64,000 bases of DNA from Chitinophagales bacterium (GCA_947452995.1 CANGEV010000012.1:4848-68847); one strand, 5' to 3'. Counted from the stretch's first letter, positions 58,227 to 64,000 are shown. Notes: generated from the sequence alone by a model not told the origin. Made by a program: numbers and translations.

Positions 58227-60485
58227 ATGAATAAAGGCCTATCTATCGTATTGGTTTTTCTCAACCTATTCATCTTTACTTCTGCCAACGCACAAAGACA
58301 GATAATTCACTTCAATCTATACGATCAAGTTTCTCTTGAGCCACTACAAGGGGCTATATTACAAAACGCCGACGCCACAATCGGTGCAGAAACAGACATA
58401 AATGGACGGGGGCAAATTGAGCAAGCGAATCTCCCTGCAACACTTACCCTGCAGGTTCATTTAATGGGTTATGAAAGCTATTCATTTAATATCAAGATCG
58501 ATACTTCCCTTCATCTTCAACAAATCGGATTACAGAAATTAAATAATGAACTAGGGACTGTTCAAATAAACACACTCCGCACCAATACACGTATCGAAGA
58601 CGCTGCAACTAAAGTGGAAGTAATCGGGATGGAAGAAATTGGAGAGGAAACAACCCTTCAACCTAGCAATCTGACGAGTCTTTTAGGCGACTTATCCTAT
58701 ATACATGTTCAACATCAAAGTGGTGCTTCGGGAAATAATATGGTGCGTATGCTCGGCCTCAATACCAATTATACGCAAATCCTACGCGATGGGCTTCCTA
58801 GCTTGGATGGTTTAAGTTCTAACTTAGGAATATTAAGTGCACAGCCACTCGATTTACAACAAGTCGATGTGATCAAAGGATCTGCCTCTACCCTCTATGG
58901 CGGTGGCGCTATTGCAGGGATTATCAATTTGATTTCACCCACTCCGTCAGATTCTCCTACGACAAGCCTATTGCTGAATGTGACTTCTCTTTCGGAGAAG
59001 AATGTTCATTTGTTCACCTCTTGGAAAAAAAATAAAATAGGCTATACCCTCTTTGTTGCAAGCAATAATGCGGTTGAGAAAGACCTTAACAGTGATGGTT
59101 TGAGCGATGTCCCAGAAAATCATCAATTGATTATTCATCCTCGCTTTTTTATAGACATCAACAAAAAAAATGCACTTCGCGTAGGTATTCAAATACAACA
59201 AGACAATCGCAAAGGAGGTGACATGTTGGCTATCCAAGGATATAATGATCTTTTCTCCAACAACGCTTATCAACTATTTTTAACCACTTCGAAATCGGCT
59301 TTGGATTATCAATTAACTTCGAAATGGCGCAAAAACCAACTATTCACGTTCAAAGGAATACTTACAAATACGCAACAATTGCAAGATGAAGCCGCAAGGG
59401 GTAAAATACAATTTCAACAAAGTGGCCTGTTTGCAGAATTTTCTAATTTGAGCGTACTAAAAAAAGGAAATCTGATTGAAGGTTATTCAAAAAGAGCCTA
59501 TAACGCCTATCAAGGCTTATACGAACAATATACCACCCACTCCTTTTTTATTCAACACACAAAAAATTGGACGAGCTGGCTAACTACCGAAGCCGGTTAT
59601 CGTATTGATATGGTGAACGGCAATGGAATGATTGGTATAACAAGTAACAAAATTCACCAGCTACCTCGATTAAGTATTTATTTGCATCCATCAGAAAAAT
59701 GGAGTTTTAGAATTGGCGGTGGAAACGGTTATCGCAATCCAAGTATTTATACGCCTGAATTACTTGAAAACCCTTTAAACGCCTATTCATCGATCTTTCT
59801 TTACAATGCCAAACAACAATTTGGAACCTTAACTGAAGAAAGAAGTCAAGGCATTCAAAGTGATTTTAATTACCACTATCGCAAAGGGATTTTTGGATTA
59901 CAATTCAACCAAGCTTTTTATTATACACAAATTAGTAATCCAATTACTGTCAATTATCAATATCAAAGAGTAGACGGTGTATATCCGCAACAGCATATCA
60001 TCATCAACAATAATCCAAATTCAATTTACTCGCAAGGAAGTGACACTTATTTGCGCTTAAATTTGGATGAACTAGAATGGTATTTAGGTTATAACTATAC
60101 GGAGGTGGCCTATATGAACGCGACGAAGTATAAGCCTATCACTTTATTCCCACATCATAAGTTTGCTTCTACGGTTTTATGGGAATTAGAAGGTGAATGG
60201 AAAATCGGTCTGGAGGCTGCTTGGCAAGGCTTACAATATATTAATAATGAAAATTATCAAAAGGCACCTGACTATTGGTTCTTTGCAGCGATGATTAGTA
60301 AAATGTGGAAGAATAGTACCTTAACCTTGAACGTTGAAAATTTGATGAATTACCGCCAATCACGCGTGCAAGCAATGTATATCGGTAGTTTGAATACAGG
60401 TAGTACCAATCCAAATCTATTACCAGTATGGGGACCACTAGAAGGACGTGTGATTAACTTAAGCTATCGAATCAATTTTCGTTAA
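58227..60485 (+). CDS. TonB-dependent receptor (carboxypeptidase-regulatory-like N-domain)
   Basis: 752 aa with a signal peptide (FIFTSANAQ). It has an N-terminal CarboxypepD_reg-like segment, plug motifs (VEVIGMEEIG, VIKGSASTLYGGGAIAGIINLI) and a barrel. Confidence 0.8.
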   Translation: MNKGLSIVLVFLNLFIFTSANAQRQIIHFNLYDQVSLEPLQGAILQNADATIGAETDINGRGQIEQANLPATLTLQVHLMGYESYSFNIKIDTSLHLQQIGLQKLNNELGTVQINTLRTNTRIEDAATKVEVIGMEEIGEETTLQPSNLTSLLGDLSYIHVQHQSGASGNNMVRMLGLNTNYTQILRDGLPSLDGLSSNLGILSAQPLDLQQVDVIKGSASTLYGGGAIAGIINLISPTPSDSPTTSLLLNVTSLSEKNVHLFTSWKKNKIGYTLFVASNNAVEKDLNSDGLSDVPENHQLIIHPRFFIDINKKNALRVGIQIQQDNRKGGDMLAIQGYNDLFSNNAYQLFLTTSKSALDYQLTSKWRKNQLFTFKGILTNTQQLQDEAARGKIQFQQSGLFAEFSNLSVLKKGNLIEGYSKRAYNAYQGLYEQYTTHSFFIQHTKNWTSWLTTEAGYRIDMVNGNGMIGITSNKIHQLPRLSIYLHPSEKWSFRIGGGNGYRNPSIYTPELLENPLNAYSSIFLYNAKQQFGTLTEERSQGIQSDFNYHYRKGIFGLQFNQAFYYTQISNPITVNYQYQRVDGVYPQQHIIINNNPNSIYSQGSDTYLRLNLDELEWYLGYNYTEVAYMNATKYKPITLFPHHKFASTVLWELEGEWKIGLEAAWQGLQYINNENYQKAPDYWFFAAMISKMWKNSTLTLNVENLMNYRQSRVQAMYIGSLNTGSTNPNLLPVWGPLEGRVINLSYRINFR

Positions 60486-61912
60486 AAGAAAATCGCGCAA
60501 ATACCGATAGCTGCGAATACACAGACCGCATCAACCAAAAGCATCGTACTCAAGGTATAGCGGGTATTGCGAACTTGAATACTTCCGAAATACACAGCAA
60601 TCACATAGAAGGTCGTTTCAGCAGAACATTGAAAAACACTTGCCAGGCGGCCTGTGAAGGAATCTGCGCCATAGGTGTGCATCGCATCAATTAGAAAACC
60701 ACGAGAGCCTCCCGAAGAAAACGGACGTAATAAGGCAATCGGCATCGCATTGCTAATGTCTTTGCTCACGCCGAGATAACTTAAGCCTTTAGTCAAACCA
60801 GCTGCAATCCATTCAAACACGCCACTATTTCTAAACAAAGAAATGGCGACTAGCATTCCCAAGACGTACGGAAATATTTTCACGCCGGTATTCAAACCCT
60901 CACGGGCACCTTCTACAAAGGAGCTGAAGACATCACTATCCTTTTCTGCAAACTTCTTCTCATTCCAAAAAGCGTAGGCAATGATTACAACGAGTATGAT
61001 TAAAAACAGTGAAGTAGAAAGATGCGATGTAAATACACTTTTTTCTAATAATTCTAATCGGCTAAGATAAAATAGTAGTCCTGCAATTCCACCAATGATA
61101 GCCATCAAGATCCCAAGGAGTGCGCCGCTTTTAAACGAAATTTTCTGACGAAAGCCGACGATCAATAAAGCAGCGAGCGTACCTACCAAAGAAGTGAGAA
61201 TACACGGAATCATAACGTCCGCGGGGTTCGCCGCATTTTGTGCCGCCCGATATCCAATGATCGAAGTTGGTATCAAGGTTAGTCCTGCAGCATGCAAACA
61301 CATAAACATGATTTGCGCATTGCTCGCCTTTTCTTTTTCAGGATTGAGCTCTTGCAAGGAAGCCATGGCCTTCAAGCCGAAAGGTGTCGCAGCTGAATCA
61401 AGCCCTAAAAAATTCGCAGCGAAATTAAGCGTCATATAGGCGATGGAAGGATGATCTGCAGGGACTTCTGGAAAGATGCGTATAAAGAAAGGTGCACAGA
61501 ATTTAGCTAACTTTTCTGCTGCACCGCTTGCGATCAAGAGTTGCAAGAGGCCACTAAAAAAGGCGAGATAGGCAATGAGCGGAAGGATGATATCCGTGAG
61601 TGCGTTTTTACAGGTTTGCAATAATCCATCTGTTGCGAGGGTACCTGTGCTTATACGAACGATACTATTGTTACGTGTATAAATGGTGTCATGCTTTTGC
61701 GTGCCACTAATCGTGATAGACTCCACTTTTTGAAGAGAGTCTTGCATCCACTTCGGCAAATGACAAACATATTTTTCAGTAATGATAAGCTGTTCATCCT
61801 TTTTACCATTTATCACAGGATCTAGGGAATAGGTATGTCCTGACCACATACTGAAAAGAAGGCTCAGTAAGGAAACGAGCATGATTGAAAGCCAAAATCG
61901 ACTAAGCGCCAT
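60482..61912 (-). CDS. nucleoside-recognition-domain membrane protein (fused SpmA/SpmB-like)
   Basis: 476 aa, polytopic, with two Gate/nucleoside-recognition-like halves. The family call is from overall pattern only. Confidence 0.6.
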   Translation of the reverse strand: MALSRFWLSIMLVSLLSLLFSMWSGHTYSLDPVINGKKDEQLIITEKYVCHLPKWMQDSLQKVESITISGTQKHDTIYTRNNSIVRISTGTLATDGLLQTCKNALTDIILPLIAYLAFFSGLLQLLIASGAAEKLAKFCAPFFIRIFPEVPADHPSIAYMTLNFAANFLGLDSAATPFGLKAMASLQELNPEKEKASNAQIMFMCLHAAGLTLIPTSIIGYRAAQNAANPADVMIPCILTSLVGTLAALLIVGFRQKISFKSGALLGILMAIIGGIAGLLFYLSRLELLEKSVFTSHLSTSLFLIILVVIIAYAFWNEKKFAEKDSDVFSSFVEGAREGLNTGVKIFPYVLGMLVAISLFRNSGVFEWIAAGLTKGLSYLGVSKDISNAMPIALLRPFSSGGSRGFLIDAMHTYGADSFTGRLASVFQCSAETTFYVIAVYFGSIQVRNTRYTLSTMLLVDAVCVFAAIGICAIFF

Positions 61913-61949
61913 AATATGCGTTTTTTCGAAGATACAATCTTATGTGCGG

Positions 61950-62348
61950 CTATGCTTTACAAAGATTCCACAGGCTAACGTTGCTGCTGATTTTTTCGGA
62001 CACCACTTTTTGGATCGATATTTCATTTTTACTTTGTACGCGGTATGCAAAGTCGTAGATAATGGTCCATGTTTGTTTATTAATGGACTGCGTATGGGTA
62101 CAGAAGTGAAAATTGAAATTCGCTTCCACTAAAGCATTGGTAGGCACTATTGCATTATTACCGGAAGATAAACGCAGGAGAATAGTTCGATTGCGTTTTA
62201 AAATAGAATTAATCTGTCGAAGAACTTTTTCTTCGTGTTGTTTTTGTTGATTGTGAAAATTAGTTCGACAGTTATCATCACAAAATTTCTTATCGGAACG
62301 TCCTTGTATAGGTTGTTCACAGTCGAGACATACTTTTTTAGAAGGCAA
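61950..62348 (-). CDS. zinc-ribbon domain protein, function unknown
   Basis: 132 aa with N-terminal CLDCEQPIQGRSDKKFCDDNCRTNF (CxxC...CxxxC). It is divergent from ssb. Confidence 0.55.
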   Translation of the reverse strand: MPSKKVCLDCEQPIQGRSDKKFCDDNCRTNFHNQQKQHEEKVLRQINSILKRNRTILLRLSSGNNAIVPTNALVEANFNFHFCTHTQSINKQTWTIIYDFAYRVQSKNEISIQKVVSEKISSNVSLWNLCKA

Positions 62349-62502
62349 GGTTGTGTTGATTTAATATCAACCTGCGGGGGTATCAAGCGATGGTTATAAG
62401 AATATAACGCGCCACACGTATAAAAACGTATGTACTTGTTTATTATACGACTAAAAAAATCCACTCGCTCATCTTTGCATTGTAATTAAAAAATCAAAAA
62501 AT

Positions 62503-62856
62503 ATGCAATCAATTAGAAATAAGGTTTTGCTCATTGGAAATGTTGGGCAAGATCCAGAGATCAAGGAAATGAAGACGGGCAAGATGGCTCGCTTTAGTTT
62601 GGCTACGAATGAAGCTTACAGAGATGCAAAAGGTGAGAAGCAGACTGAGACAATCTGGCATAATTTAGTCGCATGGGGAAAGACGGCTGAGCTTGTCGAG
62701 CAGTATGTGAAAAAGGGCGATGAGTTGGCTGTGGAGGGACGTTTAGTTTCTCGCAGCTATGAGGACAAGGAAGGTGTAAAGCGTTACATCACTGAAGTCG
62801 TGTTAAATGAACTCGTCTTTTTGGCTCAGCCGTCACATCAGGCTAACGCTAAGTAA
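62503..62856 (+). CDS. ssb: single-stranded DNA-binding protein, short form without acidic C-terminal tip
   Basis: 117 aa with OB-fold motifs (NKVLLIGNVGQDPE, ARFSLATNE, TIWHNLVAWGK, VEGRLVSRSYEDKEG). It ends ...QPSHQANAK. Confidence 0.85.
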   Translation: MQSIRNKVLLIGNVGQDPEIKEMKTGKMARFSLATNEAYRDAKGEKQTETIWHNLVAWGKTAELVEQYVKKGDELAVEGRLVSRSYEDKEGVKRYITEVVLNELVFLAQPSHQANAK

Positions 62857-62872
62857 GTAGTGAAGGAGAAGT

Positions 62873-62897
62873 CGGCTACGGTATTCATTCGTAGCCG
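62873..62897. terminator. hairpin between convergent ssb and YigZ-family genes (no U-tract)
   Basis: 8-bp stem CGGCTACG/CGTAGCCG with a 9-nt loop. Neither strand has a flanking T-run, so terminator function is uncertain. Confidence 0.35.
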
Positions 62898-62913
62898 GCG
62901 CCACTCCGCAAGA

Positions 62914-63519
62914 TTATTCCGTCTCGTCTATGAATTTCAACTCGATACTTGGCTGTTGAAAGCGAGCCATAATTTCGGCTTCCTGTGCAAGCGGAATCTT
63001 AATGCGAAAGGTGCAAAACAAATCGATTTGTTTTTCGACTACGCTTAATTGATAATACTTGATCCAATGCATCACATCATTCATGGAGTTATAATCGGTC
63101 TGCAGCCACAATAATTTTTCAATACTTCGTGTTTCGATTTTTGCAAGACGTAAAGCTTGTTGAGTGGATTGTTTATAGGCGTTTATCAAACCAGGGACTC
63201 CGAGTAAGATACCGCCGAAATAACGTACGACAACGACCAGCACATTTGTTATACCGACAGAGTCGATTTGATTCAGAATAGGTTTACCTGCTGAGCCTGA
63301 AGGCTCGCCGTCGTCGCTGCTCCGGAAGTTATTTTTGTCCGTGCCCAAGCGATACGCAAAACAGTGATGCACGGCCTTGGGATGTTGTTCTTTTAGCTTT
63401 TGAAGTTCCTGCTTAAAATCGAGCGCTGATTCTATCGGAAAAGCATAGGCAATAAACCGGCTGCCGCGATCTGTAAACTCGGCTTCGACAGGGGACGATA
63501 TCGTTTGGTAGGTGAACAA
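62914..63519 (-). CDS. YigZ/IMPACT-family (UPF0029) protein
   Basis: 201 aa with an apparent TTG start. Motifs DRGSRFIAYAF, HHCFAYRLG and DDGEPSGSAGKPIL. Confidence 0.8.
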   Translation of the reverse strand: MFTYQTISSPVEAEFTDRGSRFIAYAFPIESALDFKQELQKLKEQHPKAVHHCFAYRLGTDKNNFRSSDDGEPSGSAGKPILNQIDSVGITNVLVVVVRYFGGILLGVPGLINAYKQSTQQALRLAKIETRSIEKLLWLQTDYNSMNDVMHWIKYYQLSVVEKQIDLFCTFRIKIPLAQEAEIMARFQQPSIELKFIDETE

Positions 63520-63553
63520 AAACGAGATTAATTATGATCCCGACAAGTCGGGA

Positions 63554-63602
63554 ATGAATTATGAATTATGAATTACGAATTAAAAATTAAAAATTAAAAA
63601 TT
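63554..63602. repeat. heptanucleotide tandem array A (7 units)
   Basis: Read directly from the sequence: ATGAATT x3, ACGAATT x1, AAAAATT x3. It is preceded by the hairpin TCCCGAC-aa-GTCGGGA at 63538-63553. Confidence 0.9.
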
Positions 63603-63625
63603 ATGCATAGTGAATAGGAATCAAT

Positions 63626-63795
63626 CCCTTTTCCCTTTTAACTTTTAACTTTTCCCTTTTAACTTTTAACTTTTAACTTTTCCCCTTTCCCTTTTCCCTT
63701 TTAACTTTTAACTTTTCCCCTTTCCCTTTTACCTTTTACCTTTTACCTTTTAACTTTTAACTTTTCCCCTTTCCCCTTTTCCCTTTTTACCTTTT
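63626..63795. repeat. heptanucleotide tandem array B (24 units), G-free on + strand
   Basis: Read directly from the sequence: CCCTTTT x6, CCCCTTT x3, AACTTTT x9, ACCTTTT x4, plus two 8-mers. The + strand has no G from 63619 to 63799. The last unit overlaps the stop codon of the upstream gene. Confidence 0.9.
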
Positions 63796-64000
63796 AAAAG
63801 TCTGCAAGGCGTCGGCAATCGTTCTATCATTACTCAAGCGTGGTACCTTATTCTGCCCTCCTAGCTTTCCGACCGACTTCATATATTGAATAAAGGCATC
63901 CGCTTGCAAAGGCGTAACCTTTACGAGCTGCAAAATATTGCCTGTACGGAGATCGTCGTAATAAATATTGAGTGTACGCATCGCTCGATCGATATCCTCG
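63787..64000 (-). CDS. C-terminal part of an unidentified protein (5' end outside window)
   Basis: The minus-strand frame is open to the window edge (EDIDRAMRTLNIYYDDLRTGNIL...ADALQTFKR*). I do not recognise the family. Confidence 0.5.
   Translation of the reverse strand, partial: EDIDRAMRTLNIYYDDLRTGNILQLVKVTPLQADAFIQYMKSVGKLGGQNKVPRLSNDRTIADALQTFKR

Follow-up and report, generated by a model that had tools for sequence, protein, structure and literature searches.

The spacer that separates a GH3-family gene from a gene of the YigZ/IMPACT family (yigZ) in a 64,000-nucleotide (nt) stretch of a Chitinophagales bacterium genome (GCA_947452995.1, CANGEV010000012.1:4848-68847; the whole stretch is hereafter the window) raises the question of how two tandem arrays of heptanucleotides came to occupy it, and whether they have any role there. 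Measured from the GH3 stop codon to the TTG with which yigZ begins, the spacer was 267 nt long, the length counted in a first-pass annotation made from the sequence alone, and it comprised, in the direction of the two genes, array B, a linker, array A and a small GC-rich palindrome (Table 1). Both flanking genes and the G-rich strand of the arrays lie on the minus strand, hereafter the sense strand. The explanation that we favour, with moderate confidence, is a lineage-specific, slippage-driven expansion of the two arms of an RNA hairpin located between GH3 and yigZ, together with an unpaired tail that is free of C.

Two heptamer arrays and their predicted pairing in sense RNA

Array A consisted of seven heptamers (on the + strand ATGAATT x3, ACGAATT and AAAAATT x3) and array B of 24 units (CCCTTTT x6, CCCCTTT x3, AACTTTT x9, ACCTTTT x4 and two octamers), in agreement with the first-pass annotation in both extent and content. 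Tandem Repeats Finder (TRF) called them at period 7 with 7.4 and 24.0 copies, respectively. They were also unique in the window, as had been claimed: TRF reported no other period-7 array in the 64 kb, a second scan for at least three near-identical units with a period of 4 to 12 added none there, and none was present in a further ~10 kb of the same contig (L001) past the window end, bringing the part of the source genome examined for heptamer arrays to 74 kb. Heptamer-pair patterns occurred 15 times against 0.7-2.5 expected. The + strand was indeed free of G from 63619 to 63799, a run of 181 nt, the next-longest G-free run in the window being 56 nt and the number of 181-nt runs expected by chance at the window's G content being ~3.5e-12. 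A non-coding spacer had been proposed, and none of the six frames stayed open for more than 30 codons. The overlap between the last array unit and the end of the upstream gene was likewise found, with the GH3 codons AAA AGG TAA (K-R-stop) forming the first sense heptamer of array B.

The internal order of array B bears on how it arose. With G for AAAAGGG, g for AAAGGGG, T for AAAAGTT, M for AAAAGGT and + for an octamer variant, its sense order was M G+ g+ g T T M M M G g T T G G g T T T G T T G G. The block G-g-T-T was present three times, and TRF scored a 28-nt higher-order period at 205 against 168 for period 7. Besides the two octamers there were only four unit types and no scattered point changes, which together with the repeated blocks is the pattern expected of recent slippage and multi-unit block duplication.

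Arrays A and B were found to be the two arms of one imperfect inverted repeat, a relationship absent from the first-pass annotation, and pairing between them is predicted in the sense RNA only. Sense AAAAGUU units of array B pair in phase with AAUUUUU units of array A, with one G·U pair per unit. When the region 63553-63690 was folded and compared with dinucleotide shuffles, the sense RNA reached a minimum free energy (MFE) of -25.3 kcal/mol (z -3.72, with 1 of 200 shuffles as good), whereas the antisense RNA reached -9.3 kcal/mol (z +0.26), the minus (sense) strand folded as DNA -9.8 kcal/mol (z -0.48) and the + strand folded as DNA -5.9 kcal/mol (z +0.87). The predicted helix is interrupted, with ~40 nt per arm held by A-U and G·U pairs, and its 3' arm spans 63564-63603. 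Complementarity that exists through G·U pairs only is a signature of structure in the sense transcript. The remaining, partnerless units of array B, folded over 150 nt, gave an MFE of -1.2 kcal/mol, which did not improve on shuffles.

We postulate that the arrays grew on both arms of a pre-existing hairpin, A-rich on its 5' side and U-rich on its 3' side, through slipped-strand mispairing and duplication of blocks of units 28-35 nt long. The hairpin would serve as RNA punctuation between the two genes, whether terminator-like, processing or stabilising, and it plausibly has a function at present. The distal ~16 units of array B would form an unpaired C-free overhang with no sequence-specific role, which at most might extend the untranslated stretch ahead of yigZ.

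Table 1. Features of the GH3-yigZ spacer and its flanking genes (window coordinates)
Feature	Coordinates	Strand	Sequence or evidence
Upstream GH3-family gene, 3' end	63787..64000	minus	Pfam GH3_C, E 5e-08; continues past window edge
Array B, 24 heptamers/octamers	63626..63795	minus	sense AAAAGGG / AAAGGGG / AAAAGTT / AAAAGGT
Distal array B, ~16 units, partnerless C-free A/G/U stretch	63679..63795	minus	essentially unstructured in predicted sense RNA
Hairpin 5' arm, proximal array-B units AAAAGUU and AAAAGGG	63639..63678	minus	sense-RNA fold prediction
Linker between arrays, unique sequence	63603..63625	minus	sense ATTGATTCCTATTCACTATGCAT; apical region of predicted hairpin
Array A	63554..63602	minus	sense AATTTTT x3, AATTCGT, AATTCAT x3; U-rich 3' arm of predicted hairpin (paired 63564-63603)
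Small GC-rich palindrome	63538..63553	minus	sense TCCCGAC UU GTCGGGA; within AATTCAT array, apparently inserted
Downstream YigZ/IMPACT-family gene, 201 aa, TTG start at 63519	62914..63519	minus	Pfam UPF0029, E 1.6e-37

Signals that might give the tract another role were sought in the spacer. The first-pass annotation had suggested control of promoter geometry, and the scans gave this no support: the window spacer contained neither a sigma-70-type promoter nor the Bacteroidetes -7 box TAnnTTTG, and the box was missing from all eight spacer alleles, the only near-matches being the array-A units TAATTTTT, which fit it at 7 of 8 positions. A scan of 60000-64000 against Rfam 15 gave no match at E <= 1. 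A consensus terminator scan called nothing inside the arrays or directly after GH3, and nothing in the spacers of three relatives; its single terminator-like match in the window spacer (63542-63523, minus) overlaps the GC palindrome a short way upstream of where yigZ starts.

Two DNA-level structures had also been proposed, and neither was supported. The G-quadruplex (G4) motif G3+N1-12 x4 was absent and G4-aware folding found none; G3+ runs in array B came at most three in a row, a fourth requiring a loop of at least 18 nt. The A-tracts, for which a 21-bp geometry had been envisaged, yielded no net curvature (bend vector sum 0), because A4 tracts at 7-bp spacing stand 240 degrees apart on the helix and their bends cancel. 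That non-B DNA (G-quadruplex or i-motif, H-DNA or curved DNA) governs promoter geometry is thus extremely unlikely. The sense strand of array B does carry 11 G3-4 runs, as well as homopurine stretches that reach 28 nt, and G-rich heptamers of other bacteria make G4 in vitro (PMC4692102), but the motif exists here only in combinations with 18-nt loops, and the tract is unconserved.

The possibility of an assembly artefact, also raised at first pass, could be set aside. Independent Logan assemblies of ERR10509559 and SRR9214418 both have the window's yigZ with its palindrome, array A and linker, plus the first four array-B units, array A and these proximal units being identical in the two, and both end at one identical base inside array B. 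Such breaks, together with those of both assemblies of a 92% relative at its AATTCAT array, are what an artefact or a miscount of units in a short-read metagenome-assembled genome (MAG) would have in its favour. The break fell, however, exactly at the k=31 branch predicted from the window sequence, since the longest exact repeat within array B is 33 nt and cannot be crossed at k=31, whereas larger k-mers cross it unambiguously and give a unique array. An identical YigZ protein was present on four contigs of 50-200 kb, with the array read in L001 alone. We regard the probability of an artefact or a miscount as negligible.

Turnover of the GH3-yigZ spacer among relatives

GH3-yigZ synteny was retained in a small clade, in which nt identity to the window was ~90% in the nearest relative and 75-81% in the rest, and conservation among the relatives set in exactly at the yigZ TTG. 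Array B was missing in all relatives examined that keep this synteny, although their flanking genes were 75-90% identical in nt. In direct orientation they shared with the window only the AT-rich AATTnnT block beside yigZ, with array A matching exactly over 17 nt (TTAATTTTTAATTCGTA) in L124/L162 and over 20 nt in L157. As this block alone is common to the clade in direct orientation, array A is the ancestral part and array B the lineage-specific one.

What stood in place of array B differed from lineage to lineage. The spacer of the nearest relative (contigs L157-159; YigZ 94% identical in aa) was 66 nt long and read (ATAATGA)4, then AATTCAT AATTCAT AATTTTT AATTCAT, and was identical in three independent samples. 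In L124/L125, L162 and L163 it was 113-119 nt, with a long imperfect hairpin after the stop codon followed by AATCTTT AATTTTT AATACTT AATTTTT AATTCGT. L126 had 125 nt, with a short hairpin, (CATTATT)-type units and then CCCTTTT x2 on the sense strand, and L164 had the same allele at 97 nt, lacking four units (28 nt) between flanks that were 97-100% identical. The palindrome reported as a hairpin at 63538-63553 was found there (TCCCGACAAGTCGGGA, 16 nt, bounded by TCAT on each side); it was present with one different loop base in the 92% relative (L160:8-23/L161) and missing from L157, which suggests a small insertion within the array.

The earlier suggestion of a hypervariable slippage tract was supported in part. 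Rapid change agreed with the comparisons, as relatives had spacers of 66-125 nt with other heptamers and two close strains lay four units apart; the control of a promoter that had been attached to it found no support. A tunable or contingency tract, in which gain or loss of units alters yigZ expression in the manner of the hmw1A/hmw2A heptamers, is in our judgement improbable. Its appeal lies in the change of unit number between close strains of a relative, in the fit of TAATTTTT to the -7 box and in position, with arrays B and A ending 106 and 34 nt upstream of the yigZ start and the hmw tract lying ~70-106 bp upstream in the account given in PMC2651432. Against this, no promoter was identified, yigZ is of housekeeping type and not a surface or restriction gene, and the short arrays of the 94% relative did not differ among the three samples.

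Further matches among the alleles were found on opposite strands. The L126/L164 spacer matched the window and L157 spacers only in inverted orientation, through AAAAGGGAAAAGGGAA and TAATGAATAATGAATA, of 16 nt each, and the junction AAAAGGGAAAAGGGA(T/A)TGATT likewise matched it solely when inverted. The 3' side of that spacer, (CATTATT)n AATCATT (CCCTTTT)2, is the exact complement of motifs on the 5' side of the other two, namely (AAAAGGG)2 ATTGATT in the window and (AATAATG)4 in L157. Inverted-only matches of this kind would be expected if lineages had retained different arms of one ancestral heptamer-armed hairpin. An inverton was considered and rejected, as the L124 and L126 spacers are not reverse complements and the short inverted matches are better read as complementary arms. 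The alleles did not behave as a mobile or repeated element, their unique parts being found nowhere else in the DNA examined.

Several observations concern the alleles of individual relatives. In L157 (2477-2494; also L158 and L159) GH3 ends in ...QAFKIMNNE before the stop, compared with ...Q(T/A)FKR elsewhere, the heptamer array having supplanted the last Arg codon and the stop codon and added four residues. The spacers at L124:3887-4000 and L126:3876-4000 (114 and 125 nt) were completely unrelated over their whole length, stop codon to TTG, between flanks that were 99.5-99.8% identical over ~6.2 kb (18 single-nucleotide differences), and their GH3 stop codons were TAG and TGA, respectively. 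Each allele had backing from independent contigs, the first from L125, L162 and L163 and the second from L164, and the pair looks like a within-species dimorphism of the entire spacer. Comparison of L124:3887-4085 with L162:2670-2867 showed the hairpin-type spacer to be 98.2% identical while the flanking genes were only 82-88% identical, and the high identity extended ~85 nt into yigZ, synonymous sites included; this excess reflects either strong constraint or recent interspecies exchange. L163 had no such excess (81% vs 78-83%). In the 92% relative, contigs L160 (1-56, megahit k141) and L161 (1-53, Logan) both stop at an AATTCAT array beside the GC palindrome, 46-49 nt upstream of yigZ, which suggests a long or heterogeneous array in that relative as well.

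Heptamer arrays in other genomes and competing explanations

Species-representative genomes were scanned for (AAAAGKK)3, and the figures that follow are those among the 120 matches listed (L004-L123). Many phyla had such A4GKK arrays, usually of 4-13 homogeneous units, and 26 of the 120 had an inverted partner array of the same units within 300 nt. In every one of these 26 composites the order was A-rich array, loop, complement; the reverse order, equally detectable, was never seen. Examples include L079 (Phycisphaeraceae), arranged around a GC hairpin and folding at -62.7 kcal/mol (z -12.4), L070 (Pyrinomonadaceae), whose mixture of units is that of the window tract and which folds at -44.2 kcal/mol (z -5.7), and L012 (Saprospiraceae). 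Among viral contigs, 2 of 120 arrays had an inverted partner, one on each side, which is uninformative on polarity. An A-rich 5' and U-rich 3' polarity is that of a bidirectional terminator, from which we infer that such arrays often begin from the flanks of terminator-like hairpins. A bolder proposal, which we consider unlikely as it stands, is that heptad-armed hairpins (A4GKK on the 5' side, its complement on the 3' side) make up a widespread class of intergenic RNA punctuation in which slippage tunes termination, read-through or processing, the locus described here being a hyper-expanded example in front of an IMPACT-family gene.

Apart from the composites, the purine-rich strand was sense to the upstream open reading frame (ORF) in 32 of the listed matches and antisense in 17, a weak bias that depends on crude ORF calls, and 15 of the 32 sense arrays began no more than 16 nt from the ORF stop codon or supplied it, as in the window and L157. 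At least three contigs of one Saprospiraceae MAG, E1_MAG_00014 (L012, L035 and L037), carried AAAAGTG arrays, and heptamer repeats of this type may be abundant in that genome.

Strand composition invites another interpretation. Rho prefers RNA that is C-rich, G-poor and unstructured. The sense RNA of the tract is free of C for 181 nt, the antisense RNA is free of G with 30% C, and array B RNA is unstructured, so that Rho would load poorly on the sense strand and ideally on the antisense strand, with purine binding by S1 or Csp proteins possible on the former. The tract could then be a strand-asymmetric RNA platform which lets sense read-through pass and has antisense transcripts stopped by Rho, a placement for which the 32 vs 17 orientation and the abutting stop codons offer some support, as do the G-rich heptamers of Xanthomonas and Nostoc, located on the sense strand within 50 bp after stop codons (PMC4692102). 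We nevertheless hold it to be very unlikely, since the tract is unconserved in relatives, the sense-strand arrays of the L126 allele are pyrimidine-rich, the bias in orientation is a weak one and there is no known binding protein.

Repeats of this general kind have been described before. Heptanucleotides are the commonest long simple-sequence repeats (LSSRs) in most prokaryotic genomes, and slippage of the polymerase has been held responsible for them (Mrazek et al. 2007, as summarized in PMC4679880). As far as that summary describes them, LSSRs resemble the window arrays in being head-to-tail 7-nt units beyond chance expectation, intergenic, phylogenetically sporadic and attributed to slippage, and in that units that are not a multiple of three are kept out of coding sequence. 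Unlike the LSSRs in that summary, the tract described here has interleaved blocks of unit types, a 28-nt higher-order period and complementary arms, and its source genome, with a single such locus in 64 kb, is not visibly repeat-rich. It is nonetheless a heptanucleotide LSSR, being made of tandem copies and changing between relatives.

Comparisons with more specific families were less close. MacGregor (2015, PMC4679880) described arrays of TAACTGA and other heptamers in Beggiatoaceae, Cyanobacteria and Bacteroidetes. Gramella forsetii and Aequorivita sublithincola have long intergenic arrays of mixed heptamers where the same neighbourhood in close relatives is shorter and repeat-free, and heptamer arrays have been suggested, though not shown, to act in RNA binding or in translation (PMC4679880). 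The window array resembles those of Gramella and Aequorivita in being long, mixed and missing from the shorter spacers of relatives. It does not belong to the TAACTGA sets, which lie mostly a few nt upstream of a start codon: its A4GKK and AATTnnT units are unrelated in sequence, and array B follows at once on a stop codon, with the next start 106 nt away. Rehm et al. (2015, PMC4692102) reported GGGNATC and GGGGA(C/T)T heptamers of 2 to 26 units in Xanthomonas and Nostoc, situated on the sense strand between co-directional ORFs and within 50 bp after stop codons, which favour four units and fold into G-quadruplexes. The window tract is placed as those repeats are, with G3 heptamers between co-directional ORFs and a G-rich sense strand beside a stop codon, yet it lacks four G3 runs at normal loop distance, and half of its units are without G3.

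In Haemophilus influenzae, hmw1A and hmw2A are preceded by (TGAAAGA)13-38 at ~70-106 bp upstream of the start, and expression depends on the number of units (Dawid et al. 1999, as cited in PMC2651432). By that account the two systems share a purine-rich 7-nt unit upstream of a gene's start codon, as well as strains with different repeat types at one place; unlike the window tract, the hmw tract is described there as lying between mapped promoters and the gene, with a measured effect on expression, and, unlike the hmw genes, yigZ does not encode a surface factor. Bidirectional intrinsic terminators (A-tract, hairpin, U-tract) share with the predicted structure an A-rich 5' side, a U-rich 3' side, a position directly after a gene and a structure at the RNA level, but here there is no GC-rich stem with an immediate U run, and the arms are heptamer arrays tens of nt long. 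Dispersed heptamers of the cyanobacterial STRR type occur in many copies throughout a genome, unlike the one period-7 locus in 64 kb plus ~10 kb found here. On these defining features the tract does not qualify as a member of the G4, TAACTGA, STRR or canonical-terminator families.

The main rival to an expanded hairpin is that the spacer holds purely neutral simple-sequence DNA, a by-product of slippage in a permissive spacer whose arm complementarity is a historical residue with no present function in either DNA or RNA. We think this rather unlikely, but it accounts well for a spacer rebuilt in each lineage, with array B missing in every relative and two contigs with 99.5-99.8% identical flanks carrying unrelated spacers, and it is consistent with the failure to detect a promoter, a terminator or an Rfam family. 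It does not readily explain why the G·U-only fold is significant in sense RNA and not in antisense RNA or DNA, why some hairpin followed by U-rich heptads is kept in every allele, or why the composite arrays listed from other phyla have a polarity of 26:0.

Several results weigh against the expanded hairpin, the first of which also speaks for neutrality. Equivalent folds in the relatives were not significant (z -0.3 to -2.1), the whole 281-nt spacer was only marginally better folded than shuffles (z -1.69), and the hairpin is AU/GU-rich and interrupted. Because dinucleotide shuffles break the repeat structure, the z-score in part reflects repetitiveness, and the contrast between sense and antisense is the stronger argument. 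A canonical intrinsic terminator or promoter went undetected in every allele examined; with no promoter in the spacer, co-transcription of GH3 and yigZ is the default assumption, and transcription across the spacer is itself assumed. The change in unit number was seen between L126 and L164, and not for array B within its own species. Among the composites, gene contexts were mixed, with six apparently between divergent ORFs by ORF-based calls, and the 26:0 polarity rests on the first 120 matches listed.

The locus, its host and wider significance

The GH3 stop codon TAA occupies 63787-63789, and the full gene of 498 aa is present on L001. The region is identical to contig CANFLG010000011.1 of MAG GCA_947447805.1. 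The closest named YigZ proteins, at 60-65% identity, are from Chitinophagaceae (Danxiaibacter, Flavisolibacter and Ferruginibacter), and the host is an uncultured Chitinophagaceae-like bacterium. At the other end of yigZ, an inverted repeat (CGGCTACG...CGTAGCCG, 62871-62897) lies between the convergent genes ssb (62503-62856, +) and yigZ (62914-63519, -); it is a candidate terminator hairpin common to both, although the consensus scan did not call it. Past the window end, L001:5014-5250 encodes, by 15-nt DNA repeats, a Lys/Ala/Pro-rich repeat protein of 78 aa (MAAKKAIKKAAPKKAAAKK...), whose gene lies between those for ribosomal protein L27 and a DUF3127 protein. This protein is conserved in relatives (L124:1290-1502, L125, L126 and L137:62-217) and resembles histone H1-like or nucleoid proteins.

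The tract is a striking example of known bacterial simple-sequence DNA and not a new kind of element. If slippage did expand the arms of a GH3-yigZ hairpin, the locus would be a natural example of slippage rebuilding a bacterial intergenic region within species-level divergence, and would show that such arrays can break short-read assemblies at predictable points. The G·U-only complementarity of the arms and the 26:0 polarity could matter more than the locus itself: if a complete survey bore both out, they would tie the long-noted excess of heptanucleotides in prokaryotic genomes to terminator-like RNA hairpins, giving that excess a testable origin.

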